Shown here: positions 5,321-62,294 of the stretch, in pieces
How positions within the stretch are numbered: the stretch's first letter is position 1
Layout of the letters: each line of letters opens with the position of its first letter
From: Candidatus Komeilibacteria bacterium
GTDB lineage: Bacteria; Patescibacteriota; Patescibacteriia; UBA1558; GWA2-36-10
Assembly: GCA_018656065.1 (NCBI GenBank)
Contig: JABHZY010000017.1
Coordinates: 20,873-84,872, forward strand
Length of the DNA stretch: 64,000 nucleotides
Reading direction: 5' to 3'
Program-made: the position numbers and the translations under genes
Notes under the pieces: model-generated
Told to the model about the DNA's origin: nothing
Database searches by the model: none
The model's input: the letters and a program-made list of their open reading frames with translations, nothing else

Positions 5321-5350
5321 CCCCTAGTATACTTGCTAGGGGTGGTTTTT
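5321..5350 (+). terminator. Rho-independent terminator after the racemase gene
   Basis: CCCCTAG (5321-5327) pairs with CTAGGGG (5336-5342), then TGGTTTTT. Confidence 0.7.
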
Positions 5351-5368
5351 ATTAGTATAATATTGAAT

Positions 5369-6793
5369 ATGTCTACAGCTAATAAAATATTCACCAATAC
5401 TCTCTGGCAGGTGATAATTAGGGTTATCAATATTTTGATAGGTGTTTTTTCTTTAGCCTTAATTACCCGTATGTTAGGCAAAGCTGGTTTTGGTTTTTAT
5501 ACTACTATATTTGCTTTTGTGCAGATGTTTGCCATTTTAGCAGATCTAGGTCTTTATATGGCAATGCTTAGAGAAATATCTTCTGTTAAAGATAAAGTTA
5601 GTGAAAATAAAATAATAAATAATATATTTACTATTAGACTAGTATCATCTCTTTTGATGTTGGTTCTAATTCCACTAGTCATTCAATTCTTCCCCTATGA
5701 TCAGGCAGTCAAGACAGGAGTTATATTTTTTATGGGCACATTCTTTTTTCAAACTTTAATTACTACTTTGACAGCAGTTTTTTCCAAAAAATTAGATATG
5801 GCCAAGGTAGCCTTTATAGATTTTGTAAATAAACTTCTTTATGCTGGATTCTTGCTCTATTTATTTTTTTATGGCTTTTCTCTTCATACCATAGTGTTGG
5901 GCAATTCATTCACCATGGGAGTATCATTCATTTTACTTTTATTTTTTATACGGCGACACATTAAATTATCATTAGCTTGGGACTTTAAATACTGGAAGAC
6001 TGTTTGGCATCGTTCTTGGCCTTTAGCTATTACGGTAGTATTAAATTTATTATATTTTAAGGCTGACACTTTAGTATTGTCTGCCTATAAATCTCCAGAG
6101 GAAGTGGGTTTGTATGGTGCTCCCTACAGAGTGCTGGAAGTAATGGCTACATTTCCGCATATGTTTATGTCTCTAATTTTGCCAATCTTTACAGCTAATT
6201 GGGTGGCTAGAAAAATCAAAGACTTAAATGAAAATTTTCAGCACAGTTTTGATTTTTTTAGTATTATAAGTATAGCTATGCTTTTCAGTACCTGGTTGAT
6301 TAGTAGGCCACTGATGATTAAGTTATCTGGAGAAGAATTTGCTGCTTCAGGGCCAATACTAGATGTATTGATTGTTGCTACAGTAGGTATATTTTTTGGA
6401 ACTTTGTTTATTTATATGGTAGTAGCCATTGACGCTCAAAGACAAATGATCAAATACTTTCTTTGGTCAGCTATTGTAGCTTTAATTGGCTATTTCATAT
6501 TTATACCTATTTATTCTTATTGGGGGGCAGCTTATATGACATTAGTTGTTGAGTGGTTGATAGTACTTTTTGCTTGGCGAGTTGTCAAAAAAAATATAAA
6601 CATAAATATCAAGTTGGGTGTTCTATATAAAAGTATCTTTGCAGGAGCTTTTGCTTTTTTAGTAGCCTGGATGTTACGATCATATAATATAGTTTTTACT
6701 TTAGCTCTTGCGCTGTTGTTATATTTTATAATTTTGACTTGGTTCAAAACTATCAGTCGCAAACATCTTAAGCAAATATTTTTAAATAAATGA
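5369..6793 (+). CDS. Polysaccharide/oligosaccharide flippase (MOP/Wzx-like)
   Basis: About 14 predicted TM helices and a Wzx-type N-terminus (NTLWQVIIRVINILIGVFSLALITRMLGKAGFGFY). I chose ATG 5369 because the ORF-track TTG at 5333 lies inside the upstream terminator. Confidence 0.8.
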   Translation: MSTANKIFTNTLWQVIIRVINILIGVFSLALITRMLGKAGFGFYTTIFAFVQMFAILADLGLYMAMLREISSVKDKVSENKIINNIFTIRLVSSLLMLVLIPLVIQFFPYDQAVKTGVIFFMGTFFFQTLITTLTAVFSKKLDMAKVAFIDFVNKLLYAGFLLYLFFYGFSLHTIVLGNSFTMGVSFILLLFFIRRHIKLSLAWDFKYWKTVWHRSWPLAITVVLNLLYFKADTLVLSAYKSPEEVGLYGAPYRVLEVMATFPHMFMSLILPIFTANWVARKIKDLNENFQHSFDFFSIISIAMLFSTWLISRPLMIKLSGEEFAASGPILDVLIVATVGIFFGTLFIYMVVAIDAQRQMIKYFLWSAIVALIGYFIFIPIYSYWGAAYMTLVVEWLIVLFAWRVVKKNININIKLGVLYKSIFAGAFAFLVAWMLRSYNIVFTLALALLLYFIILTWFKTISRKHLKQIFLNK

Positions 6794-8055
6794 TGAATTT
6801 ATTTTTTGCCATTTTATTGATAGGATTTATTTTTCTAAGTTACAGAAAATTACTTTGGGGAGTGGGCGCGGTGATAGTTTTATTACCAGCCTATCTTTGG
6901 CGTTTTGATATTTTAGGACTGCCAACTACTTTTTTAGAGTTGTTGATAGTTTCTTTATTTATAATTTGGCTGATCAAAGAAAAAAAATATACTAAAATAA
7001 ACTTTTCTTTACAAAAAAACTCTAATAATCAAGTTCCTAAAATTTTAAGATACTTATTAGGCCTGTGGTCATTGGCAGCTATCTTGGCCTTGCTAACAAA
7101 TTTTAGCTATTCCTCTTTAGGCTTGTGGCGAGCTTATTTTTTGGAGCCTCTAATGTTCTTCCTAGTTTTTATTTATACGGTTAAGGATAAAAAAGATTGG
7201 AAAGTAATTATAAATTCTCTGGGTTTGTTATTGGCCTGGTTATTTACCGTTGCCATGTATCAGAACTTTACAAATTGGAATTATATTAACGCTTATAATT
7301 TTCCTAATGTTAAAAGATTGACTGGGCCCTTTGCCTATCCTAATGCACTTAGTTTAATTACAGCGCCACTGACAGCTTTATTTGCCGGCCTCTGGATTTA
7401 TACTAAAGATAAGTTATTAAATTGGCATTATTTAATATTATTTATTTTTGGCGTATCTTTAGCAATTATGACTGTTAGCCAGGGGGCTATTTCAGCTATT
7501 GGGTTTGCACTATTTTTAGCTCTAATATTAGCCAAAAAAATAAGAAAAATAGGCATTTCTATTATAGTCTTGGGATTAATTAGTATTCTTTTAGTATTAC
7601 CAAGTATAGACATTAATCCAGAGTTAAATTTACAATCTAGCTCCCTAGACATTCGTCTTAATCAATGGCAAGAGACTAGTGATTTGCTAGCGGACAATTT
7701 TTTATTAGGGGTTGGTTTAAATGGATACCAGGCTGCTCTACAAAATTATCATCAAACAGAATGGTTAGAGATTTATTTATATCCACATAATATATTTTTA
7801 AATTTTTGGACAGAGATGGGCATATTTGGCTTATTGGTTTTTGTAAGCTTATTAGTATACGTAGTCTTACTGTTAAAAAATTTATTTAAGAATAAAAATA
7901 ATTTAGCTTGGCCATTAGCTATGATGTGGGTGACTTGGTTTATACATGGTTTAGTTGATGTGCCTTATTTTAAAAATGATTTAAGTATTTTATTTTTTAC
8001 AATGCTAGTTTTTACTTTAGTAGTTTCTAAATATAAAAAAGATGTCAAAAGCTAA
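6790..8055 (+). CDS. O-antigen ligase / Wzy_C-family membrane protein (WaaL/PglL-like)
   Basis: Polytopic membrane protein with the Wzy_C-type segment GVGLNGYQ...YPHNIFLNFWTEMGIFGL. Its start overlaps the upstream stop as ATGA. Confidence 0.75.
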   Translation: MMNLFFAILLIGFIFLSYRKLLWGVGAVIVLLPAYLWRFDILGLPTTFLELLIVSLFIIWLIKEKKYTKINFSLQKNSNNQVPKILRYLLGLWSLAAILALLTNFSYSSLGLWRAYFLEPLMFFLVFIYTVKDKKDWKVIINSLGLLLAWLFTVAMYQNFTNWNYINAYNFPNVKRLTGPFAYPNALSLITAPLTALFAGLWIYTKDKLLNWHYLILFIFGVSLAIMTVSQGAISAIGFALFLALILAKKIRKIGISIIVLGLISILLVLPSIDINPELNLQSSSLDIRLNQWQETSDLLADNFLLGVGLNGYQAALQNYHQTEWLEIYLYPHNIFLNFWTEMGIFGLLVFVSLLVYVVLLLKNLFKNKNNLAWPLAMMWVTWFIHGLVDVPYFKNDLSILFFTMLVFTLVVSKYKKDVKS

Positions 8056-8662
8056 TAAAATATTTTTTTATCCATCTAGCCTAGTTTTAGTTTTAGTGAA
8101 TCTAATTCCTTTGTTAGGAGTGTTATTTTTAGGTTGGGATGTATTTTCAATTATTATTTTGTATTGGATGGAATCAGCTGTAATTGGATTTTTTAATATT
8201 TTAAAAATGCAGAAGATAAATAATTATAAATTTACTCCTCTGTTACCATTTTTTATAATGCATTATGCAATTTTTATGTTTGTGCATTTATCTTTTATAA
8301 TAAATTTTTTTCAACCAAATTTACAACCAGCCTCAGATCAACTAGAGGCCCTTGTAATAATTTGGCAATATTTTAGAAGTATATTTATTTCCTTGTTTCT
8401 TATATTTTTGAGTCACGGGCTTTCATTTATATATAATTTTATAAAAAGAGAGGAATTTAAACATATTAGTATAAAACAACAAATGTTTATTCCCTATAGA
8501 AGGATTATAATAATGCATCTTGTGATTATGTTAGCTGGAGCAGGAATTATATACCTTGAATATGATAAAGCAGTTTCAGCTATAGTTTTTTTAGTGATTT
8601 TAAAGATAATTTTTGACTTAGGTTCTCATATCTTTGAACATCGTAAAAATATTTTGAATTAA
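8042..8662 (+). CDS. Polytopic membrane protein, unknown function
   Basis: Has 5-6 hydrophobic helices and overlaps the upstream gene by 14 nt. No motif recognised. Confidence 0.6.
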   Translation: MSKANKIFFYPSSLVLVLVNLIPLLGVLFLGWDVFSIIILYWMESAVIGFFNILKMQKINNYKFTPLLPFFIMHYAIFMFVHLSFIINFFQPNLQPASDQLEALVIIWQYFRSIFISLFLIFLSHGLSFIYNFIKREEFKHISIKQQMFIPYRRIIIMHLVIMLAGAGIIYLEYDKAVSAIVFLVILKIIFDLGSHIFEHRKNILN

Positions 8663-9575: not shown

Positions 9576-10958
9576 ATGCTTGTCAAAAAAAGGATAAAAA
9601 TATTTACACTACTTATGCTAATGATATTTGTTATTAGCTCAGGTTTTGGTTGTAAATGGAATCCTTTTAAAAAAGATCCAGCTTCTTATGATAAAGTTAC
9701 TCTAGAATATTGGGGAGTTTGGGATACGCCCGGGCAGTTAAAGGCTTTAATGGCTGATTATAATACTAGTCATCCTACTATAAAAGTTAAATATAAAAAT
9801 TTTAGATATGATGAGTATGAAAGGAAGTTATTAGAAGCCTGGGCTGATGATAGGGGGCCAGATATTTTTGCCATACCTTCGACTTGGCTTAAAAGCTACC
9901 AGCATAGGATAGAACCAATGCCTAAAACTCATAAAATTCCAGTATATGAATTACAAGGCAGTATTAAAGAAGAGCTAGTTATAGTTTTGAAAAGCTTTAA
10001 GGGTTTATCCCCACAAGACGTAAAAAACCAATATGTGACAGTAGTCTATGAGGATGTGATTTTAGATGGTAAGGTTTATGCTTTGCCATATTATCTTGAT
10101 ACTTTAGCAACATTTTATAATATTGACTTACTTACTCAAGCTGGTATTCCAGAGCCAATGGATGATTTTTTTGACCTAGTTGAACAAGTTCCAAAACTTA
10201 CTAAAGCCACTGATAGTAATAGGATAATCCAATCAGCTGTAGCTTTAGGAGGTACAGATAATATACCAAGATTTTTTGATATATTTTCTAGCATTATGTT
10301 ACAAAATGGTGTAAAGGCAGATGGTAAAAGATTTAAGCCTATGGAAGATAAGGAGTCTGCTACTAGGTTAGTACAAGCTTTTAATTTTTATACTGATTTT
10401 GCTAGACCAGGTAAGGCTAGTTATAGTTGGAATGCTGAGGCAGAAGATGCTTTAGAGATGTTTGCCGGTGGTAGATTGGCTTATATGTTTGGCTATAGTT
10501 ATCACGCTGATCAACTGAGAGATAGGAATTTACAATTTGATTGGGATATAAAAAATTTCCCACAAACTAGGGGTGCTAGCGGAACTAAATATTACGCAGA
10601 TTACTGGGTGAATGTAGTATCTAAAAAATCAGACAGCGTTGACGCAGCTTGGAATTTTATTCAAAGCACGGCTGCTGCTGATAAAGTTAATATATATCTA
10701 AAAGCTAATAAAAGACCAACGGCTCTCAGATCATTAATTGATAAGCAACTTAATGATTATGAACTAGCTACCTTTGCTTCTCAAGTTTTGACAGCTGATA
10801 ATTGGTATAACGGTTATAATATTTCCTTAGCTGAAAAATTTACAGCTGAGATAATCGATGGTCTTGTATCTGGCGAGTTGATAATGGACAAAGAAGCTAC
10901 GCCGATCAATTTATTTGTTAATAAAATTAATCAAACTTATGTACCGCCTAATAACTAA
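9576..10958 (+). CDS. Extracellular solute-binding lipoprotein (ABC sugar-binding family), orphan
   Basis: Signal peptide ending in the lipobox-like SSGFGC, with SBP_bac_1-like length and composition. No permease or ATPase gene is adjacent. Confidence 0.7.
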   Translation: MLVKKRIKIFTLLMLMIFVISSGFGCKWNPFKKDPASYDKVTLEYWGVWDTPGQLKALMADYNTSHPTIKVKYKNFRYDEYERKLLEAWADDRGPDIFAIPSTWLKSYQHRIEPMPKTHKIPVYELQGSIKEELVIVLKSFKGLSPQDVKNQYVTVVYEDVILDGKVYALPYYLDTLATFYNIDLLTQAGIPEPMDDFFDLVEQVPKLTKATDSNRIIQSAVALGGTDNIPRFFDIFSSIMLQNGVKADGKRFKPMEDKESATRLVQAFNFYTDFARPGKASYSWNAEAEDALEMFAGGRLAYMFGYSYHADQLRDRNLQFDWDIKNFPQTRGASGTKYYADYWVNVVSKKSDSVDAAWNFIQSTAAADKVNIYLKANKRPTALRSLIDKQLNDYELATFASQVLTADNWYNGYNISLAEKFTAEIIDGLVSGELIMDKEATPINLFVNKINQTYVPPNN

Positions 10959-11580
10959 AATTTTATTTGTTGCTTTTTTATTTATCCTACTTCCTCAGAT
11001 AGCGCAGGCAGGATTTATGGATGATATAGCATATTGCACAGCTAATGGATCTTGTAATTTTGAAGATGCAGCAGCCGGCCTTAATTCACTTATTAAATTA
11101 TTATTAGGCATGATGGGCGCTGTGGCTTTATTATTTTTTGTATGGGGCGGTTTACAGTGGCTTACATCTGGCGGTAGTGCAGAGAGAGTAAATAGAGGTA
11201 AGCAAATAATGATAAATACAGTTTTTGCTATTATTTTAGCTTTTGGTTCTTACATATTAGTAAGTTTTTTCGTCAACGATGTTTTAAATGTTGAAGATAA
11301 TTTTCAAATCCAAGAAGGCCCATTTACGGGCTGTAATGAAATGCCAATTTTTACAGATTGCGGAGACAACAAGCAATGCGGAGCAGGATTTCCAGCTCCT
11401 TGGGAACATTTAAATAATAGTTGTGTATATATTTGCGAGATTCATAGTGTGTTGCTTAGTGGAGGCACTAGAGGTGGGAAATGTGTAGGTGTGTTGTTAG
11501 AGGGGTCGGAAGTAGTTCCTGGCTGGGATAGTAGTTGGTGTCCAGCTACTCAAACTTGTGCTTATCCACCGCCAAATTAA
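10939..11580 (+). CDS. VirB2/TrbC-like (T4SS-pilin family) protein with a Cys-rich C-terminal extension
   Basis: Signal peptide (..PQIAQA), TM1, conserved loop WLTSGGSAERVNRGK, TM2, then about 100 aa containing 8 Cys. Start ATG 10939 is in frame within the ORF-track ORF. Confidence 0.75.
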   Translation: MYRLITKILFVAFLFILLPQIAQAGFMDDIAYCTANGSCNFEDAAAGLNSLIKLLLGMMGAVALLFFVWGGLQWLTSGGSAERVNRGKQIMINTVFAIILAFGSYILVSFFVNDVLNVEDNFQIQEGPFTGCNEMPIFTDCGDNKQCGAGFPAPWEHLNNSCVYICEIHSVLLSGGTRGGKCVGVLLEGSEVVPGWDSSWCPATQTCAYPPPN

Positions 11581-11605: not shown

Positions 11606-11941
11606 ATGTTAAAAAAAATTATATTATTTATTCTCTTGTTTATTCCAAATATGTCTAAAGCTGCGGAAGATCACAGAGTGCCTTTGCCGAATCCAATAAA
11701 GGCAGACAATATACAAGAATTGTCAGGATATATGATTAGGGGCTTATTGGGTGTTAGTGGTGCTATAGCTTTATTTATGCTAGTTTGGGGCGGCATAGTA
11801 TGGATGACCTCAAATGGTAATGCCGAGAGACTTAAAAAAGGGAAGGATACTATTTTATGGGCCATACTAGGTTTAATAATTATCTTTACAAGTTATATAA
11901 TTATTAATTTCCTATTTACTATTATTGGTGGAAATGCATAA
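11606..11941 (+). CDS. VirB2/TrbC-like (T4SS-pilin family) protein
   Basis: Signal peptide and two TM helices flanking WMTSNGNAERLKKGK. Start ATG 11606. Confidence 0.75.
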   Translation: MLKKIILFILLFIPNMSKAAEDHRVPLPNPIKADNIQELSGYMIRGLLGVSGAIALFMLVWGGIVWMTSNGNAERLKKGKDTILWAILGLIIIFTSYIIINFLFTIIGGNA

Positions 11942-12024: not shown

Positions 12025-12384
12025 ATGAAAAAAATACTTATTTCTTTAATGGTTTTAGCACCTAGCATGGCTAGTGCTCAAACTAATCTTGACAGTTGGG
12101 GATATAATGATTTCTCTGAGAGTAATATCGCTTTAGGCTCAAAGGATCTTAAAGAAACAATTGGTGGTGTTATTAACATTATCTTAGGTTTCTTAGGAAT
12201 TTTAACAACTTTGATTATTTTAATGGGTGGTTTCAAATGGATGACTTCTCAAGGTAATACTGAAAAAGTTGACGAAGCTAAAAAGCTTATCGGTGCTGGT
12301 ATCGTCGGTTTAGTAATCATATTAACAGCTTACGCTGTATCTAGATTCGTATTAAGCGAATTATATGCACAAACTGTTGAATAA
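12025..12384 (+). CDS. VirB2/TrbC-like (T4SS-pilin family) protein, likely the major subunit
   Basis: Signal peptide (..SMASAQ) and two TM helices flanking WMTSQGNTEKVDEAKK. It has its own promoter and the strongest SD in the array. Confidence 0.8.
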   Translation: MKKILISLMVLAPSMASAQTNLDSWGYNDFSESNIALGSKDLKETIGGVINIILGFLGILTTLIILMGGFKWMTSQGNTEKVDEAKKLIGAGIVGLVIILTAYAVSRFVLSELYAQTVE

Positions 12385-12481: not shown

Positions 12482-12856
12482 ATGAAATTTCAAAAATACA
12501 AATTAACTTTATTGTCATTATTATTTACTCCTCTAGCAGTTTTAGCAGCAGACATTGTTGGACAGGCAGAACTTCGAGAAGCTGCTACGATAGCTAAGTT
12601 TGGTATGGAAACAGACGTCTACGTAATTGCTACTAGATGGATTAATGGTTTTCTGTCTATATTTATGATGGTGTTTACTTATTTTGTAATCTCAGCCGGC
12701 TTTATGTGGATGACTTCTGGGGGGAATGTAGAAAAGGTATCAGCAGCCAAGGCCACTTTAAAAAATGCTTTAATTGGTTTGATAGTTGCTCTAACCGCTT
12801 ATTCTTTAGCTAGGTATGTAATGTTAGCCCTAGGTCAAACTACCGGCATTGCTTAA
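12482..12856 (+). CDS. VirB2/TrbC-like (T4SS-pilin family) protein
   Basis: Signal peptide (..LAVLAA) and two TM helices flanking WMTSGGNVEKVSAAK. Confidence 0.75.
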   Translation: MKFQKYKLTLLSLLFTPLAVLAADIVGQAELREAATIAKFGMETDVYVIATRWINGFLSIFMMVFTYFVISAGFMWMTSGGNVEKVSAAKATLKNALIGLIVALTAYSLARYVMLALGQTTGIA

Positions 12857-12869
12857 TAATTTTAATTTT

Positions 12870-12896
12870 AAAACCCCGTTAGGGGTTTTTTTATTT
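12870..12896 (+). terminator. Rho-independent terminator ending the pilin array
   Basis: AAACCCC GTTA GGGGTTT followed by a T-run. Confidence 0.8.
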
Positions 12897-12934
12897 TTGT
12901 TCAAATTAAAATATTATATGCTATAATTAATTGA

Positions 12935-14746
12935 ATGCTGAAAATTTTTAAAAAACATAGTAATAAAATACTTTGGATATCAATCTTTATCTATATTTTA
13001 TTATTTTCTTTTCTAAGTTTAAAAAAATATTATGCTTTTGGTTATAATGCTTTTGACTTAGCTATTTTTAATCAAGTCTTTTTTAATACTCTCGATGGCA
13101 GATGGTTTGAGATGACGATTAATCTTAATAGTTATTTGGCAGATCATTTTACGCCAATAATAATTTTATTATTGCCTGTATATAAATTATGGCCCAGAGC
13201 AGAGACTTTACTTATTCTACAGAGTATAGTATTGGGGTTATCAGCTTGGCCTCTTTATAAAATTAGCAGGCATGTAAAAAAGAATAGTTTATTTGCTTTA
13301 AGTATCGCCTTATTATGGCTAGTAAATCCTTTTGTTCATAATGCTAATGTTTTTGAATTTCATTTGTTGCCTTTAGCTGTGTTTTTCATTTTTTGGACTT
13401 TCTATTTTTACCAAAAGGATAGTTATAAGCTTTTTATATTATTTTTAGTACTTAGTTTATTAGTTAGAGAAGATATTGCTTTAATACTCGTTGGATTTTT
13501 TCCTTTGGCTTTTTTTGAAAAAAGAAATCTAAAATGGAAAATAATAAGTATTATATTACCAGTTGTTTATTTTCTTTTTAGTATTAGCCTGGTATCTTCT
13601 TTTTCGGGGGGAGCTTATAAATTCGTTATATATTATTCATGGTTAACTAATATCTTTAGTCAGCCTATTAGTGTTTTAGCTAAAATATTTTCTTTATCAA
13701 ATATTTTTAATTTTAGTTTTGTTTTTTTGCCATTATTGTTTATTCCTTTTTTGCGGGCTCGTTATTTATTTTTATCTTTACTGCCTTTACTACAATTTGT
13801 GTTATCTTCCACTGGTTTTTACTCGGTAATTTATAATAGTCATTATATTTTATTATTATTGCCAGGCATATTTATATCTTTTATTTTTGCTTTCTCTCGG
13901 ATAGATAAGCAAAAAATTATTTATAATAATAAAAACTTTTTTAATTTAATATTTTTATTTACAGTAATATATTTTTTAATATTTTCATCTCCTATTAAAA
14001 ACTTTTTTAATAATACCATTTCTAAAGACCATATTAAAGAGAAATTTATTACTTATATCGACAAGGGGGCTAGCTTAGTCACAGACTTATCCATAGCTTC
14101 ACAACTTAGCAATAGGCAAGAAATATACCCTCTACATTATACTTATTTTGCCAAAGGACAGTTTGGTAATAAGGACTTTAATTTACCGTCAGTGGATTAT
14201 ATTTTAATAGATTATAGTAATTTTTTTGATATTTTAGTGGATTTAGAATCTCGGCCAGAGCGCAGTATAGATAATCCAGCTAGTAACTTTAGAAATATAC
14301 TAGCCAATTATTATTTGGTAGAGGCTAGAAATAATATGTTTTTATTTAGTGCTCAAGCAGGGAAAAACAACTATCCTCTTTATGAACTAGGCCCTGAGTC
14401 TAGTGCTTCGGTCGGTGATAATTTAGTTGATGATTATAAATTAGAGAAAAAAGATAATTTAAATACTTTAAAAATAAATTTTAAAAAAACACACAGTGAT
14501 AATAAATATCTAGTGCGTTTTTATAAAGATGATTCTTACTTTGACTTACCCTTAGATTATGGCTTATGGCCAATGGATGAATGGCCAGAGGATTATCCAA
14601 TTAGTTTTTATTATTATTTATCTGACAATGTTAATTCTTGGCAAATATTTTCTTGGCAGGGTGATAATAAGTTAGGGTATATTAGAGAATTGGCGGTAGA
14701 TATGGATGTTTCTCCAATTACAAGTGTTATTTTATTGAATAATTAA
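12935..14746 (+). CDS. DUF2079-family polytopic membrane protein (copy 1)
   Basis: N-terminal YYAFGYNAFDLAIFNQVFFNT signature, many TM helices and a C-terminal soluble domain. It is a full-length paralog of 24394-26223. Confidence 0.75.
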   Translation: MLKIFKKHSNKILWISIFIYILLFSFLSLKKYYAFGYNAFDLAIFNQVFFNTLDGRWFEMTINLNSYLADHFTPIIILLLPVYKLWPRAETLLILQSIVLGLSAWPLYKISRHVKKNSLFALSIALLWLVNPFVHNANVFEFHLLPLAVFFIFWTFYFYQKDSYKLFILFLVLSLLVREDIALILVGFFPLAFFEKRNLKWKIISIILPVVYFLFSISLVSSFSGGAYKFVIYYSWLTNIFSQPISVLAKIFSLSNIFNFSFVFLPLLFIPFLRARYLFLSLLPLLQFVLSSTGFYSVIYNSHYILLLLPGIFISFIFAFSRIDKQKIIYNNKNFFNLIFLFTVIYFLIFSSPIKNFFNNTISKDHIKEKFITYIDKGASLVTDLSIASQLSNRQEIYPLHYTYFAKGQFGNKDFNLPSVDYILIDYSNFFDILVDLESRPERSIDNPASNFRNILANYYLVEARNNMFLFSAQAGKNNYPLYELGPESSASVGDNLVDDYKLEKKDNLNTLKINFKKTHSDNKYLVRFYKDDSYFDLPLDYGLWPMDEWPEDYPISFYYYLSDNVNSWQIFSWQGDNKLGYIRELAVDMDVSPITSVILLNN

Positions 14747-14810
14747 TAAAAAAGAGGTATCATAAATGTATTATATTTGGGTATAATATGGTAATTAACT
14801 TATTAATTTT

Positions 14811-15758
14811 ATGGATTTAAGTGTAGTCATTCCTTTGTACAACGAAGAAGAATCATTGAGGCCATTAAATAAAATTTTAAAAAATGTGCTCGGTAAGTTG
14901 AATGTTAAATATGAAATTTTATATATTGATGATGGTTCAAGAGATGAGTCAGTAAAAATTTTAAAAGAGATTTCTTCTAATGATAAGCATGTAAAAGTAA
15001 TAGAATTAAAAAGAAATTTTGGTAAATCAATTGCCTTAGCTGTTGGTTTTGATAAATTAGTGGGTGATTTAGTTATTACTATGGATGCTGATTTACAAGA
15101 TGATCCAGAGGAAATACCAAAATTGATCGAGCAAATAGAAAAGAATTACGACCTTGTATCTGGTTGGAAATACAAAAGAAAAGATCCTTTAGTTAAGATA
15201 TTGTCGTCTAAAATTTTTAATTTTACTGTATCTTTACTCTCAGGCTTAAAAATTCATGATTTTAATTGTGGCTTCAAGATTTATAGAAAAGAGGTAGTAA
15301 AAAGTATAGAACTTTACGGAGAATTACATAGATTTTTACCTTTTTTAGCTTATCAGCAAGGTTTTAAGGTGGGAGAGATAAAAGTAAAACACAATGTTCG
15401 TCAATTTGGAGAGTCAAAATATGGTCGTTCTGGTTTAAAAAGGTTAAGTAATTATATTTTAGATCCTATCAATGTGGTTTTTTTAACTAAATATCAAAGA
15501 AAGCCAGCTCATTTTTTTGGGAATATAGGGCTTATCTCTTTTGCGATTGGCTTACTAATATCAATATATTTGACCGTTATCTGGTTTATGGGGCAAGGTA
15601 TTGGAAATAGACCATTACTTTTTTTAGGAGTATTACTTATGATCATAGGTATACAATTAGTATCAATGGGGTTTTTAGGGGAGTTGATTGTCAGAGAAAA
15701 TATATCAAAAAGCAAAGATAAGTATGTCAAAAAACATGATAAAGAATTGGTGGAATAA
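14811..15758 (+). CDS. GT2 polyprenol-phosphate glycosyltransferase (DPM1/ArnC-like)
   Basis: Motifs VVIPLYNEEE and DADLQDDPEE (DxD), plus two C-terminal TM helices. Confidence 0.9.
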   Translation: MDLSVVIPLYNEEESLRPLNKILKNVLGKLNVKYEILYIDDGSRDESVKILKEISSNDKHVKVIELKRNFGKSIALAVGFDKLVGDLVITMDADLQDDPEEIPKLIEQIEKNYDLVSGWKYKRKDPLVKILSSKIFNFTVSLLSGLKIHDFNCGFKIYRKEVVKSIELYGELHRFLPFLAYQQGFKVGEIKVKHNVRQFGESKYGRSGLKRLSNYILDPINVVFLTKYQRKPAHFFGNIGLISFAIGLLISIYLTVIWFMGQGIGNRPLLFLGVLLMIIGIQLVSMGFLGELIVRENISKSKDKYVKKHDKELVE

Positions 15759-17088
15759 TATAAAAGAAGATAAGCATAAGCGCCGCGTAGTGTTGGCTTT
15801 TTTTCTTTTGGCTTTTTTTCTTATTTTATTTACGGAACCTTACTTTAATACTTATAATGTAATTTCTAGATATTTAACAATAGAATCTATAGTAGAAGAT
15901 GGGGATTTTATTATAGATGAAAGACATCAAGCTACGGGTGATAAAATTTATAGAGAGGGGCATTATTATTCTTCTAAGCCACCAATTTTGTCTGTTGCAG
16001 CCTCTTCAATTTATTATATTACTCATAATTTTTTTGGACAGGATTTTCCAGAAACTGGCATAAATACTAGATCTGAATATTTTCATTCTATATATCCTAC
16101 GGTGTATGTTGCTAATTTGATTTTTGTAGGTTTGCCATTTTTATTTTTACTTTTTTATTTTTATAAAACTCTCAAACTTTTTTATATTAAAAGTAGATAC
16201 CATTTACCTCTTATTTTAGGTTTGGGCTTAGGTAGTTTGTTATTTACTTACTCCGTGACTTTTAATAATCATGTTATAGCTGGTAGTTTGTTATTTATAG
16301 GGTTTTATTATTTATTATTAATAAAAAAATTCAATTATAAGTTTGATGACATAAATAAATATCTTTTTCTGTCAGGACTTTTTACCAGTTTATCAGCGGT
16401 GATTGATTTGCCTACGGGCCTTACTTTTTTTGCTTTATTTTTTGTTTATTTTTTTCTAAAACTTGGATTTAGAAAAATATTATATTATATAGGACCTGCC
16501 TTAATAATATTTTCTTTACATTTATATTTTAATTATCAAGCTTTTGGAGGTTTTCTACCAGCCCAAGCCTATGAGGATTATTGGATAGGGCCAGATGGCG
16601 AGCTTGTCTTGATACATTTTTTTAGAGATCATAGTTGGTATACATTATTGTTTAATATTTTTATTGGTACTAATGGTTTTTTTATTTATACTCCATTATT
16701 ATTACTACCTTTGTATAGTATTTATAAAATTATTAAAGAAAAATCAGAGTTTATTTGGGAAGCTTTAATGATAGTATTTGGATTTATAATTTTAATTCTT
16801 TTTTATATAAACCTTGCCAAAGACTATGGGGGTGGTGCATATGGCTATAGATGGTTTATAGCTATCACACCTTTATTTTACTTTTTTATTATATTTTTAT
16901 TCAAAAAAACGCTCAGTGCAAAAATGAGCACTGTTTTTACTATTTTACTTTTATGGTCATGTATAGTGGCTATTATAGGTGTTTTTGATCCTTGGCCTCA
17001 GAGTCTTAGGTTTGATATTTTTGGGACACTTTTTCCAGTTCCACCACTTTGGGTGGCCTTAGGTTTAGATTATTCTTTTTTATACTAA
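15724..17088 (+). CDS. GT-C fold membrane glycosyltransferase (ArnT/PMT_2-like)
   Basis: Polytopic, with a first-loop motif YREGHYYSSKPPIL resembling the KPPL loop of the ArnT/GT39-83 families. The start is uncertain (15724 or 15736). Confidence 0.6.
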   Translation: MSKNMIKNWWNNIKEDKHKRRVVLAFFLLAFFLILFTEPYFNTYNVISRYLTIESIVEDGDFIIDERHQATGDKIYREGHYYSSKPPILSVAASSIYYITHNFFGQDFPETGINTRSEYFHSIYPTVYVANLIFVGLPFLFLLFYFYKTLKLFYIKSRYHLPLILGLGLGSLLFTYSVTFNNHVIAGSLLFIGFYYLLLIKKFNYKFDDINKYLFLSGLFTSLSAVIDLPTGLTFFALFFVYFFLKLGFRKILYYIGPALIIFSLHLYFNYQAFGGFLPAQAYEDYWIGPDGELVLIHFFRDHSWYTLLFNIFIGTNGFFIYTPLLLLPLYSIYKIIKEKSEFIWEALMIVFGFIILILFYINLAKDYGGGAYGYRWFIAITPLFYFFIIFLFKKTLSAKMSTVFTILLLWSCIVAIIGVFDPWPQSLRFDIFGTLFPVPPLWVALGLDYSFLY

Positions 17089-45426: not shown

Positions 45427-45990
45427 TTATGCTCCTCCCCCTCCTCCAGGGCATATTCCGTGAACTTGGCAGATGCCAGTACAGCAGGGCGTGCCACTTG
45501 GATGGCAGCCGGTTTCTCCAGCAAGTACACAACAGTTCTTAGTAGTTGTTTCTTCACAAGATTCATTAGAACAGCTAATATATTTTTCCTCACCAGTCTT
45601 TTTTACTTCTAAACAAAAGCTAGTGTTTTCAAAATCAGATTGAGCACTATACCAATTCCAGCCGGTTTCAAGAAAACTACCCCAGGTAGGTTCGCTCATT
45701 CCACTTAGGCAAAGAGAATTACCTGACCAAGGTGTGTAGTCAGTTATTTCATCTTGAACACCATCCCAACCATTACAATCACGACCATTACAATTTAATT
45801 CAGTTTCAGAATAAACACAAAGAGTGGCAGCTTTTTGGAGTTGAGCTAATGAATGCATTATTTTAGCTTTATTGGCTTTATCTTTAGCGCTCCGTAGATT
45901 AACTACGGCTGTAGTTGATAGTATACCGATAATAGCTATTACTATTAGTAGCTCTACTAAAGTAAAACCTTTTTTGTCTTTGTGAAACAT
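45427..45990 (-). CDS. Type IV pilin-like protein with a Cys-rich C-terminal module
   Basis: Prepilin leader and N-methylation site KKGFTLVELLIVIAIIGIL. It has 14 Cys, ending in CCVLAGETGCHPSGTPCCTGICQVHGICPGGGGGA. Confidence 0.85.
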   Translation of the reverse strand: MFHKDKKGFTLVELLIVIAIIGILSTTAVVNLRSAKDKANKAKIMHSLAQLQKAATLCVYSETELNCNGRDCNGWDGVQDEITDYTPWSGNSLCLSGMSEPTWGSFLETGWNWYSAQSDFENTSFCLEVKKTGEEKYISCSNESCEETTTKNCCVLAGETGCHPSGTPCCTGICQVHGICPGGGGGA

Positions 45991-57060: not shown

Positions 57061-58281
57061 ATGTTTAAAAAACTTTTATTAAGTTTAGCTTTTTTACTCG
57101 TTGCTTTTTCTGCCAGCGCCCAAACCAAACCGGAAATTTATTTTTTCTATTCTAATTCATGCCCTCATTGTCACAAAGAGGCCTTATTTTTAGATAAATT
57201 AGAAAATGACTATAGTTCTAAAATCAAGATAAATAGATTCGAAGTAGGCAAAACTCAAGCTAATGTTGATTTGATGTTAGGAATGGCGAGTAAGCTAGGA
57301 ACTGAGGTATCGGGGGTACCTTTTACAATAATAGGCGATAAATATTTTACTGGTTATTATAATGATCAAATAACTGGTTCACAAATAAAACAGGCTATTG
57401 ATGATTGGTTAAGTATAGCAGCTAATAGTGTTGTAATTCCTAATAAACCAATCGGACAACCTGAGCCAAATGGTTCCAATCCTGAGACTGATCCAATCGA
57501 TTTATTGGATTCTCCGCCAGTAGAAGAAACAGCCAATAATATTGAAGTGCCTTTTGTTGGTCAAATAGACGCTAAGACATTTTCTTTACCACTACTATCA
57601 GTTATTTTAGGATTTTTAGATGGTTTCAATCCGTGCGCTATGTGGGCATTGATATTTTTGATTTCACTTTTATTGGGCATGAAAGATAAAAAAAGAATGT
57701 GGATTTTGGGAGTGACTTTTATAGTTGTTTCTGCGTTTGTATATTTTTTATTTATGGCCGCTTGGCTTAATATATTTTTATTTATAGGTTTGGTTTTATG
57801 GGTGCGAATTGCTATTGGCCTTCTAGCTTTAGGTGGAGGAGGATATAATGTGAGAGAATTTTTCAAAAATAAAGCAGGTACTTGCAAGTTAGATGGTCAG
57901 GCTAAGAAGAAACAAGTTTTTGATAAATTAAAAAATATTACAGAACAAAAGAGTTTTTGGTTAGCTTTATTAGGAATTATACTTTTAGCTCTGGCAGTTA
58001 ATATGGTGGAATTGGTATGTTCAGCAGGGCTTCCAGCTGTCTATACTCAAGTCTTAGCACTTAATGATTTGAGTACTTGGCAATATTATAGCTATATTTT
58101 GCTTTATATTTTCTTTTTTATGTTAGATGATCTTCTGGTATTTTTTGTGGCCATGGTTACCATGCAGATTACAGGACTTAGTACTAAATATAGTAGATAT
58201 TCTTCTTTAATAGGAGGAATAATTATGATAATAATTGGTTTATTACTTTTATTTAGATATGATATTTTAACATTTGCTTAG
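57061..58281 (+). CDS. Thioredoxin-fold (CPHC) domain fused to a CcdA/DsbD-type membrane thiol-disulfide transporter
   Basis: Signal peptide and YSNSCPHCHKE. The membrane domain carries FLDGFNPCAMW and ELVCSAGLP. Confidence 0.75.
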   Translation: MFKKLLLSLAFLLVAFSASAQTKPEIYFFYSNSCPHCHKEALFLDKLENDYSSKIKINRFEVGKTQANVDLMLGMASKLGTEVSGVPFTIIGDKYFTGYYNDQITGSQIKQAIDDWLSIAANSVVIPNKPIGQPEPNGSNPETDPIDLLDSPPVEETANNIEVPFVGQIDAKTFSLPLLSVILGFLDGFNPCAMWALIFLISLLLGMKDKKRMWILGVTFIVVSAFVYFLFMAAWLNIFLFIGLVLWVRIAIGLLALGGGGYNVREFFKNKAGTCKLDGQAKKKQVFDKLKNITEQKSFWLALLGIILLALAVNMVELVCSAGLPAVYTQVLALNDLSTWQYYSYILLYIFFFMLDDLLVFFVAMVTMQITGLSTKYSRYSSLIGGIIMIIIGLLLLFRYDILTFA

Positions 58282-60483: not shown

Positions 60484-60523
60484 TAAAAAAGAAGAGGCAC
60501 TTCCCCGCATGGGGAAGTGCCTC
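60484..60523 (-). terminator. Rho-independent terminator of the GC-rich island operon
   Basis: A perfect 13-bp stem pairs GAGGCACTTCCCC (60494-60506) with GGGGAAGTGCCTC (60511-60523), loop GCAT. On the minus strand it is followed by TTCTTTTTTATTC. Confidence 0.85.
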
Positions 60524-60543
60524 GAGCTTTCCGGCGTCCTTGG

Positions 60544-60864
60544 TCAGGCTTGCCAGATGAAGCTCAGGTGAGTTTCGGCGCCAGCGTCCTTGAGGGTGCA
60601 CTGGCTGTGTGGTTGCATTACCACAGTGGTTCCCGTGGTCAGCATCTCCTCTTCGTCATCTTGGACGCACTTGATATGCCCCTGGTCGATGTGAATGACC
60701 AGGAGGTGTTCGTTGGTGTCGATTTCGTAGGGAGGTGAGTCGGGATCGACTTTTTCCTTGCGCAGGAAGGGTCGTTCCGGGATGTCCTTGGCGTGTGACT
60801 GGACGTTACCAGTCTCATCGATATCCAGGGCTACCACAGAACTTGGCGGCAGAATGATTAGCAT
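60544..60864 (-). CDS. Hypothetical 106-aa protein (GC-rich island gene 2)
   Basis: SD-like AAGGAA precedes the ATG, which lies 14 nt after the upstream stop. Codon usage is GC-rich. Acidic, no signal peptide, no motif recognised. Confidence 0.65.
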   Translation of the reverse strand: MLIILPPSSVVALDIDETGNVQSHAKDIPERPFLRKEKVDPDSPPYEIDTNEHLLVIHIDQGHIKCVQDDEEEMLTTGTTVVMQPHSQCTLKDAGAETHLSFIWQA

Positions 60865-60878
60865 CGATTTCCTTTCCG

Positions 60879-62132
60879 TTAGAACCGTTTGGTTGTTTTG
60901 ACGGTAATGCCGCCGTTGTTGTCGAAGCCTAGGCTGAAGCGCATGTCATGCTCAGCAACCTTGACTCTGGCGCCCAGCTTGATCTGCCAGTATTCTCGGC
61001 GAGGGTCACCTAGCTGGTGGGTTTGGTAGTCATAGATCAAGTCCGAATACTCGGCCCAGGTGAAACCCATATAGGGTCGGTTGAGCGATCCCCAGTTGTC
61101 CGGGTAGCTCAGGTAGGCACTGACGTCGTTGTGCATCAACTCGGTATCTTGACTAACGTCGATAGACAGCGAAGAAATTGCAACAACAAAGACGCCGAAA
61201 TCGACCGTTTCGTGAGCAGAGCCTAGTCCAGGATCACCCATGTAGCGCCCGCCGATAATTCGAGAGCGCTTGAACATGCCTAAGGCAAGGGCCTGATCAA
61301 TAACCAGGGTGACTGGAGATCCTAGGGCTTTGCCGCCTAAGGTGAAGATAGTCAGGGAATAGCGTGACTGGTCCTTGACTCGTAGGACCGCCACCAGACC
61401 AGGGTTGAACCCATTGGCTCGGTAATCGATGGAGTGAGATATTCCACCGAGCCAGGTGACTTTGCCATCGTCACTGGGGTTGATGTTGGCGCCGCCGATT
61501 AGGTGCCAGCGACCGATCAGGGCATAGCGCAGCGCACCGCCGAAGCGGTTGTGCTCCACCTGATTGACGTTGGGTCCGTGACCCTCCTCGAAGCTCTCTC
61601 GTGAGATTGCCAAGAGGACGTGGTACTCTCCCATCTTCAGATTACTCATCAGATAGTGGAAAGACCCATCAACATCGTACTCGCTACCGATCTCTACTTC
61701 GACATCTTCCCACTTGTAGTAGGGGTAGAAGCCGTGGGCGAAGAAAGGATCGTCGCCTAGGAAGCTCTGGTAGCTTGCTGCCAGCTTGATGCCGCCGGGA
61801 CTGTGTGGAGGGTATTTGAGACTCAGTGCGAATTCATGCTCTGGCAGAATCAGCCCTCGAGACTGGTCAACACCATCGTTGTTGTAGCTCATCAACTCAA
61901 AGCCGAAGAGCTGGGTCCAGGTGGTATCCGGTTTGCCGTGTCGGAGTTTGACCTTGCCCTGGTCAACGTAGAAGTTCAGCCCTCGGTGGCTGATGTTGCC
62001 GATGTCCTCGTTTCCGAGGAGACGAGGGACAGTGCCGATTTCCAGGTCAGCCTTGTGCTTGAAGGGGTCTCCCGATGCCATATTCGGCAGCAAGAGGCTG
62101 GTGATCAGTAGTGCAGCGATCAGGTTTCTCAT
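60879..62132 (-). CDS. Signal-peptide protein with outer-membrane beta-barrel-like features (GC-rich island gene 1)
   Basis: Start ATG 62132 is preceded by GGAGGA. Signal peptide MRNLIAALLITSLLLPNMASG. Many alternating-polarity strands (RYSLTIFTLGG, VDFGVFVVAISSLSIDVS), and C-terminal ...GGITVKTTKRF with a terminal Phe. Confidence 0.7.
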   Translation of the reverse strand: MRNLIAALLITSLLLPNMASGDPFKHKADLEIGTVPRLLGNEDIGNISHRGLNFYVDQGKVKLRHGKPDTTWTQLFGFELMSYNNDGVDQSRGLILPEHEFALSLKYPPHSPGGIKLAASYQSFLGDDPFFAHGFYPYYKWEDVEVEIGSEYDVDGSFHYLMSNLKMGEYHVLLAISRESFEEGHGPNVNQVEHNRFGGALRYALIGRWHLIGGANINPSDDGKVTWLGGISHSIDYRANGFNPGLVAVLRVKDQSRYSLTIFTLGGKALGSPVTLVIDQALALGMFKRSRIIGGRYMGDPGLGSAHETVDFGVFVVAISSLSIDVSQDTELMHNDVSAYLSYPDNWGSLNRPYMGFTWAEYSDLIYDYQTHQLGDPRREYWQIKLGARVKVAEHDMRFSLGFDNNGGITVKTTKRF

Positions 62133-62294
62133 GGTGGATTCCTCCATGGTTACATGTGACGGGAATGACGAAATTGTGTCAAAGCTAGTTGTCAAAGGTG
62201 CAGAACTGATATACTTTAGCATAAATTGTCTACAAGTCAATGTTTATAGCTTAATTATTGACAATAGTATATTTTTAGCTAAAATAAGTAAATC

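Follow-up and report, generated by a model that had tools for sequence, protein, structure and literature searches.

Within the 64,000-nucleotide stretch of Candidatus Komeilibacteria DNA analysed here (the window), the gene at 10939-11580 on the plus strand encodes a VirB2-like pilin that carries a cysteine-rich domain at its C-terminus. The original prediction for this protein (hereafter, the tailed pilin) was a displayed disulfide-rich module. Judged from the predicted topology, the conserved cysteines and the compact predicted fold, an exported, outward-facing and fast-diverging domain with a putative disulfide scaffold, grafted on a VirB2-like pilin, is well supported. Taken as a whole, our reading is that the tailed pilin is a specialised displayed-domain subunit of a patescibacterial VirB2-like pilin structure, and we put the probability of this reading at roughly one half.

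The open reading frame (ORF) of the tailed pilin is intact and has 213 codons. The mechanical start given in the ORF list is TTG 10915, and the start in the public annotation is ATG 10939. The latter is backed by protein P0001 of a Candidatus Komeilibacteria metagenome-assembled genome (MAG; HOE19_01950), which is 100% identical across all 213 aa, and the orthologs, which all open with MY[RH], agree with it. Ten cysteines are present, at residues 33, 39, 132, 141, 147, 162, 166, 182, 201 and 207. Eight of them are located in the tail, and the mature N-terminus contributes the other two as a CX5C pair, the same counts as had been proposed. The last 101 residues have a cysteine density of 7.9%, compared with 0.34% across 28 other genes of the window, and the probability of at least eight cysteines per 101 residues is about 3e-9. 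Only one real gene in the window, that of a type IV pilin at 45427-45990, is comparably rich in cysteine. The tail spacing is C-x8-C-x5-C-x14-C-x3-C-x15-C-x18-C-x5-C, and from residue 119 onward the tail is acidic (isoelectric point 4.2) with a mass of 10.2 kDa. In the core, an N-terminal CX5C loop (C33, C39) is followed by helix 1, a basic loop TSGGSAERVNRGK, helix 2 and a conserved juxtamembrane motif, FFVNDVLNV. The parts of the gene and its putative operon are listed in Table 1, where the signal-peptide cleavage site was assigned by the AXA rule.

Table 1. Coordinates of the tailed pilin gene, its parts and the neighbouring features in the window
Feature	Position	Strand	Basis and remarks
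Solute-binding protein gene (SBP_bac_8/SBP_bac_1)	9576..10958	+	Pfam E=2e-23; lipoprotein-like N-terminus …SSGFGC
Bimodular VirB2-like pilin gene, 213 aa + stop	10939..11580	+	ORF; PF18895; exact match to P0001
Sec signal peptide, residues 1-24, predicted cleavage between AQA and G	10939..11010	+	Hydrophobic stretch 1-28; conserved junction AQAGF[LM]DD
Mature pilin core, residues 25-118	11011..11292	+	Pfam match at residues 48-111; AlphaFold2 helices 41-76 and 81-115
Linker, residues 119-131	11293..11331	+	pLDDT <50 at 121-130; ortholog indels, variable length
Cysteine-rich C-terminal domain, residues 132-213	11332..11577	+	Eight conserved cysteines; tail-only pLDDT 88.6
Short pilin paralog 2, 111 aa, no cysteine	11606..11941	+	PF18895 and TrbC
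Short pilin paralog 3, 119 aa, no cysteine	12025..12384	+	PF18895
Short pilin paralog 4, 124 aa, no cysteine	12482..12856	+	PF18895
Intrinsic-terminator-like hairpin AAAACCCCGTTAGGGGTTTT and T-run, 14 nt after pilin 4	12870..12899 (hairpin 12870-12889)	+	Strong hairpin; likely operon end

By profile and predicted topology the tailed pilin is a member of the PF18895 (T4SS_pilin) family, departing from it in size and architecture. It matches the family model at residues 48-111 with 33.3 bits, above the gathering score of 26.6, and the three short paralogs also exceed that score (32.8-44.2 bits). In addition, paralog 2 matches TrbC/VirB2 in Pfam, and paralogs 2-4 give sub-threshold matches to the NCBIfam Mbov_0395 pilin-like conjugal transfer family. 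All four paralogs share the loop motif GG.xW.TS.G..E[KR]V, and the identity between their cores is 22-36%. As had been stated for the other paralogs, each of the three short pilins ends soon after the second hydrophobic helix, 6-11 residues beyond it. The tailed pilin is atypical in size for a family of small proteins (about 100-135 aa), since the best 120 of 1787 family matches range from 82 to 138 aa and it has 213.

The tail is predicted to lie outside the cytoplasm, as the original prediction held. The hydropathy windows of the tailed pilin start at residues 1-10, 46-55 and 89-98, corresponding to the signal peptide and two hydrophobic helices. The inter-helix loop is net basic (mean K/R 2.8 versus D/E 1.2), and in 16/16 orthologs a net acidic charge is found both in the mature N-terminus and in the residues that follow helix 2. 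By the positive-inside rule, the signal peptide and this charge bias suggest that the loop is cytoplasmic and that both termini are outside; a cytoplasmic placement of the tail is not predicted.

A search of 5.8 billion proteins recovered 27 relatives of the tailed pilin, including 16 full-length orthologs (49-76% identity). All ten cysteines align in 16/16 of these orthologs, in P0012 only after a local alignment shift. When loci from GTDB genomes were added to the relatives, exactly eight tail cysteines were counted in 28 of the 33 sequences. The pattern in the relatives is C-x(3-10)-C-x(5-14)-C-x(4-16)-C-x3-C-x(12-21)-C-x(14-25)-C-x(5-7)-C, in which the C-x3-C is invariant. The remainder of the tail is far less constrained. 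Mean pairwise identity among the orthologs is 76% in the helix-loop-helix core (residues 48-118), 60% in the mature N-terminus (residues 25-47) and 33% in the tail, the last value falling to 25% when the cysteine columns are left out. The expectation that cysteine spacing would be kept while the rest varies is therefore borne out, the eight cysteines being positional and the non-cysteine identity of the tail standing at 25% against 76% for the core. No non-cysteine column of the tail reaches 90% conservation among the orthologs, and this favours a scaffold for binding or structure over an enzyme.

The ortholog set also disposes of the notion that the gene arose when a frameshift or misassembly joined a short pilin gene to an unrelated ORF. 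The same architecture, with conserved cysteine positions, recurs in the 16 full-length orthologs and in at least 12 independent MAG loci, and the identical protein P0001 occurs on 26 contigs. No point in favour of such an artefact was found, and we regard it as refuted, with hardly any residual probability.

Compared with its closest relative (L020, 76% identity), the tailed pilin has a nonsynonymous substitution rate (dN) of 0.227 for its tail and 0.066 for its core, tail evolution being about 3.4 times faster than that of the core. The ratio of dN to the synonymous rate (dS) in this comparison is 0.18 for the tail and 0.09 for the core. Pairwise tail values calculated by the Nei-Gojobori method are 0.16-0.18, indicating purifying selection, although the tail evolves faster than the core. 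The suggestion that the tail might be under diversifying selection thus finds no pairwise signature, and positive selection on the tail is not supported by these ratios; because dS in the pairwise comparisons is 0.6-1.35, near saturation, they are weak evidence against site-specific selection.

The natural deletion variant P0020 keeps C132, C141, C201 and C207 and lacks C147, C162, C166 and C182, which suggests that the disulfides pair within the set {C132, C141, C201, C207} and within the set {C147, C162, C166, C182}. At locus L017 the first pilin of the array (L017:6010-6972) has 320 aa and 22 cysteines, with a second cysteine-rich module appended. In the distant locus L019 the first array pilin (L019:4836-5564) shows a different layout of 14 cysteines in the N-terminus and tail, so the presence of a cysteine-rich tail on the first pilin after the solute-binding protein gene is more deeply conserved than the sequence of that tail.

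Solitary paralogs of about 300 aa with 14 cysteines were also observed (L003:10001-10921, L007:5974-6912, L010:6001-6891 and L013:6001-6894). They have the same pilin core and a tail of about 190 aa with the invariant motifs SCHYGGP..DGSYAADLRS and HPPSDPPxHIHIS. This 14-cysteine solitary form and the 10-cysteine form occur together in one genome (L005 and L013, MAG JBAZSG01). A resemblance of the motifs to LAS/M15 zinc peptidases was considered and found no support in Pfam and PDB sequence searches.

Structure prediction gives the tail a compact form. In the full-length AlphaFold2 model, built with the ortholog alignment, the predicted local distance difference test score (pLDDT) is 72-89 in the tail and below 50 in the linker (121-130). 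A Foldseek search with this model returned only helical-bundle matches, none of them significant, and the tail was therefore predicted again alone. The tail-only model has a pLDDT of 88.6 and a predicted template modelling score (pTM) of 0.74, and shows a small compact alpha/beta domain in which a hairpin is followed by a short helix, then a strand, another helix and a last pair of strands. With this model, Foldseek found no PDB match at E<=10 and a best match of E=2 in BFVD. The proposed knottin, EGF or lectin folds were accordingly not recovered, a weak negative because Foldseek is insensitive for small disulfide-rich domains.

Sequence searches gave the same picture. The best hit of a PDB profile search with the tail had E=1.4 and is not significant, and nothing significant was found in Pfam and NCBIfam; the Pfam EGF_Mua-3 match of the tailed pilin (E=0.38) is confined to the N-terminus. 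A phmmer search of 1.84 billion cluster representatives with the tail returned only the ortholog P0028 and P0029, a cysteine-free FG-GAP-type repeat protein that was judged spurious as a relative. A word-indexed search with the tail profile returned zero sequences, the known orthologs included, and was taken as a technical limit, not as evidence. On these searches and models, the tail is an orphan domain confined to this pilin subfamily, and the eight-cysteine domain appears to represent an undescribed fold family.

The number of conserved cysteines is even, their positions are kept, and the predicted location is extracytoplasmic; the sole candidate oxidoreductase seen is the protein encoded at 57061-58281 (plus strand). 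It has a signal peptide and a thioredoxin-like domain with a CPHC motif, and its membrane half is polytopic and contains an NPC motif. The original prediction had named it a Trx-CcdA redox fusion. The signal peptide, the CPHC motif and the polytopic half stand, whereas the Pfam matches are sub-threshold (DSBA, E=0.003; thioredoxin, E=0.007) and the membrane half has no match, so the fusion is a reasonable guess and not a finding. Judged from these features, the protein may serve the cysteine-rich pilins as an envelope disulfide oxidoreductase.

The same prediction had drawn a parallel with the type IV pilin at 45427-45990 (minus strand). This pilin is real: it has an N_methyl motif and 14 cysteines, and its last 30 residues, C-x7-C-x6-CC-x3-C-x5-C, have a spacing that by eye resembles an inhibitor cystine knot. 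However, comparison of the two tails led us to reject homology between them.

In the pro-pilins RP4 TrbC and Ti VirB2, maturation removes the C-terminal extension, which is short and unstructured. Like them, the tailed pilin is a precursor of the VirB2 family whose C-terminus reaches beyond the mature core, but its extension is conserved, confidently folded in prediction and contains eight cysteines. Its tail might likewise be cleaved, as in RP4 TrbC, and then discarded or released as a cysteine-rich toxin or signal; the conserved FFVNDVLNV and the disordered linker right after helix 2 are in line with such processing, and small secreted disulfide-rich proteins are common and often act as effectors. 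A further pointer is a Pfam match to yeast killer toxin at E=0.36, which is weak and not significant. Moreover, no protease gene was found in the operon, and an 82-residue folded domain with eight invariant cysteines is unlike a disposable propeptide. We consider this fate of the tail very unlikely.

The tailed pilin gene does not stand alone. In the window, the stop of the upstream solute-binding protein (SBP) gene overlaps the tailed pilin start by 20 nt, which makes the SBP gene a likely operon partner. The SBP gene is directly upstream of the tailed pilin gene in 13/13 loci, taken from different Komeilibacteria and Parcubacteria-group MAGs, and the two overlap by 4-20 nt in 11/13. The order SBP, tailed pilin and three to four short pilins is kept across the 13 loci, with SBP identity down to 35% (L019). 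In the window the gene order is NTP_transferase, SBP, tailed pilin, three short pilins and DUF2079. From the conserved gene overlap, the gene order and the terminator, we infer that the SBP, the tailed pilin and the three short pilins are co-expressed as one operon. No ABC permease genes were found beside the SBP gene in the window.

This linkage can also be read in another way, namely that the tailed pilin is a membrane-anchored surface protein in which the helical hairpin is an anchor only and the cysteine-rich domain works with the SBP, for example as a docking or partner module. The adjacency of the two genes in 13/13 loci and the stop-start overlap in 11/13 fit this idea, as do the failure to find an ABC permease or type IV secretion system (T4SS) gene nearby and the fact that pili are unproven in Patescibacteria. 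On the other hand, the core retains the family loop motif and, at 76% identity, is better conserved than any other region, which suggests that it does more than anchor. In addition, three to four canonical short pilins always come next in the same operon. A pure anchor is thus unlikely in our view, although it is the least improbable of the alternatives, and the favoured role of the tailed pilin remains that of a displayed-domain subunit of a pilin structure.

Tandem arrays of VirB2-like pilins are known from Patescibacteria: Quinonero-Coronel et al. 2025 catalogued 441 of them, with 2-11 genes each (PMC12102498; PMC10633639). The array in the window resembles these (PF18895/PF04956) in Pfam family, in having tandem divergent paralogs, in phylum and in belonging to a monoderm organism. 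It differs from them as follows. The published accounts, in their available portions, describe short pilins and make no mention of a C-terminal domain, whereas the first member here carries an orphan eight-cysteine domain; translational coupling links the array to the gene of a solute-binding lipoprotein; and it lies apart from T4SS ATPase genes. Patescibacterial arrays are often found away from virB4 (PMC12102498, PMC10633639, PMC12857230), and the literature reports such a separation of pilins from virB4 for about 40% of assemblies. The SBP operon, the absence of T4SS machinery from the window and the published VirB2-like arrays had not entered into the original prediction.

A design analogue for the tailed pilin is offered by the modular type IV pilins (Streptococcus sanguinis PilB/PilC), which carry a functional domain C-terminal to their pilin module. 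Both combine a polymerisation module with a grafted globular domain for display. However, the type IV pilins belong to another filament superfamily, and the tailed pilin has a Sec-type signal and no N-methyl/prepilin-peptidase motif. A likeness in proposed role only, that of a minority subunit giving a filament its binding specificity, exists with the VirB5/TraC-type minor subunit of Gram-negative T4SS, which has been described as a pilus-tip protein (PMC12857230). VirB5 differs in being a separate soluble helical protein and not a fusion to VirB2, and neither Pfam nor Foldseek gave a VirB5/TraC match for the tailed pilin.

If the tailed pilin polymerised along the whole filament, the cysteine-rich domains would make up a protective or stabilising outer sheath. 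Such a major coat would agree with the tailed pilin being the first pilin gene of the operon, with the flexible 13-residue linker (pLDDT <50), which could hold the domain off the shaft, and with the general robustness of disulfide-rich domains outside cells. It fits poorly with the co-conservation of three cysteine-free short pilins and with the typical family member, which has no tail; and the fast divergence of the tail, with no conserved surface, suits packing contacts less well. We judge a sheath of this kind quite unlikely. The tailed pilin would instead be a specialised and probably minor subunit conferring binding specificity on the pilin structure, and a host- or ligand-binding module would be a plausible function for its tail. 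The tip adhesin of the original prediction is one candidate role, a place at the tip, along the shaft or at the base being equally compatible with the sequences.

According to the favoured reading, the tailed pilin would be exported by the Sec pathway and its signal peptide cut between AQA and G. The two-helix hairpin would then sit in the membrane with the basic loop inside and both termini outside. At the C-terminus, an acidic alpha/beta domain of about 82 residues is predicted to be held by four disulfides, with a fifth (CX5C) in the mature N-terminus. The protein would be made together with the SBP lipoprotein and the three short cysteine-free pilins from one operon. It is probably a sub-stoichiometric subunit of a pilin surface structure built with the T4SS of the organism, and its fast-evolving, scaffold-conserved domain would be presented outward to bind a host-cell or environmental ligand.

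Several points weigh against this reading. The dN/dS of the tail is well below 1, and the identical protein on 26 contigs gives no sign of strain-level hypervariation. No relative of the tail with a known function was found, by fold or by sequence, in PDB, BFVD, Pfam, NCBIfam and the 1.84 billion representatives. By a geometric estimate, packing on a VirB2-type filament may be difficult if each subunit bears a 10-kDa domain. Furthermore, a pilus has not yet been shown for any patescibacterial VirB2-like protein (PMC12102498, PMC10633639, PMC12857230). Finally, VirB4, VirB6 and VirD4 were not found in the 64-kb window, in which about 60 ORFs were scanned. In favour of the reading, elsewhere in the same MAG (HOE19) a fifth short pilin, HOE19_03280 (L021:10001-10375), has 2.5 kb upstream of it an 817-aa VirD4/TraG-like coupling ATPase (L021:5084-7537) that is above the thresholds for T4SS-DNA_transf, TrwB_AAD_bind and TraG-D_C, so that at least part of a T4SS is present in the organism. 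A second DUF8128 protein is encoded near this ATPase and pilin locus.

The window is ordinary chromosomal DNA of about 31% GC, encoding FtsK, RecA, PolA, NusA, trigger factor, PBP1, glycogen enzymes and envelope-glycan genes. Envelope-glycan genes flank the pilin operon on both sides (5333-8662 and 12935-17088) and include a Polysacc_synt flippase, Wzy_C, DUF6498, NTP_transferase, DUF2079, GT2 and an unannotated polytopic protein of 466 aa. Enzymes of the Wzy_C family include pilin O-oligosaccharyltransferases, and the location of Wzy_C near the operon makes glycosylation of the pilins, by analogy, a possibility. Meanwhile, a block of about 1.6 kb at 60500-62100 has a GC content of 52-58%. Its two ORFs lie on the minus strand, at 60544-60864 and 60879-62240, and the N-terminus of the second looks like a signal peptide. 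Neither Pfam nor Rfam gave a match for the block; an rRNA identity was rejected for lack of an Rfam match, and the block could represent a horizontal acquisition or a chimeric assembly.

Patescibacteria rely on contact with host cells, and the tailed pilin may be considered in that light. The constant coupling of its gene to that of a solute-binding lipoprotein points to a link between pilin arrays and nutrient capture. One extension, which we regard as a long shot, is that the coupled SBP and tailed pilin serve for recognition or capture at the end of a T4SS-derived device with which episymbiotic bacteria of the candidate phyla radiation (CPR) take up host molecules: the tail would dock the SBP or bind the host envelope, and the pilin conduit and SBP would harvest host sugars. 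If true, this would be the first description of a specificity module fused to a pilin in any VirB2-type system. T4SS and VirB2-like arrays are essential in the single genetically tractable patescibacterial species, no PrgB-type adhesin was found in the phylum, and an adhesin or specificity factor for the patescibacterial T4SS/pilin system has not yet been identified (PMC12102498, PMC10633639, PMC12857230). Ca. Southlakia epibionticum ML1 cannot grow epibiotically without its array of six pilins (PMC12102498; PMC10633639). On our reading, VirB2-type pilins, which normally consist of little more than two helices, can have globular domains grafted onto them like the modular type IV pilins, and the tailed pilin would be a concrete, expressible candidate for the missing specificity factor.

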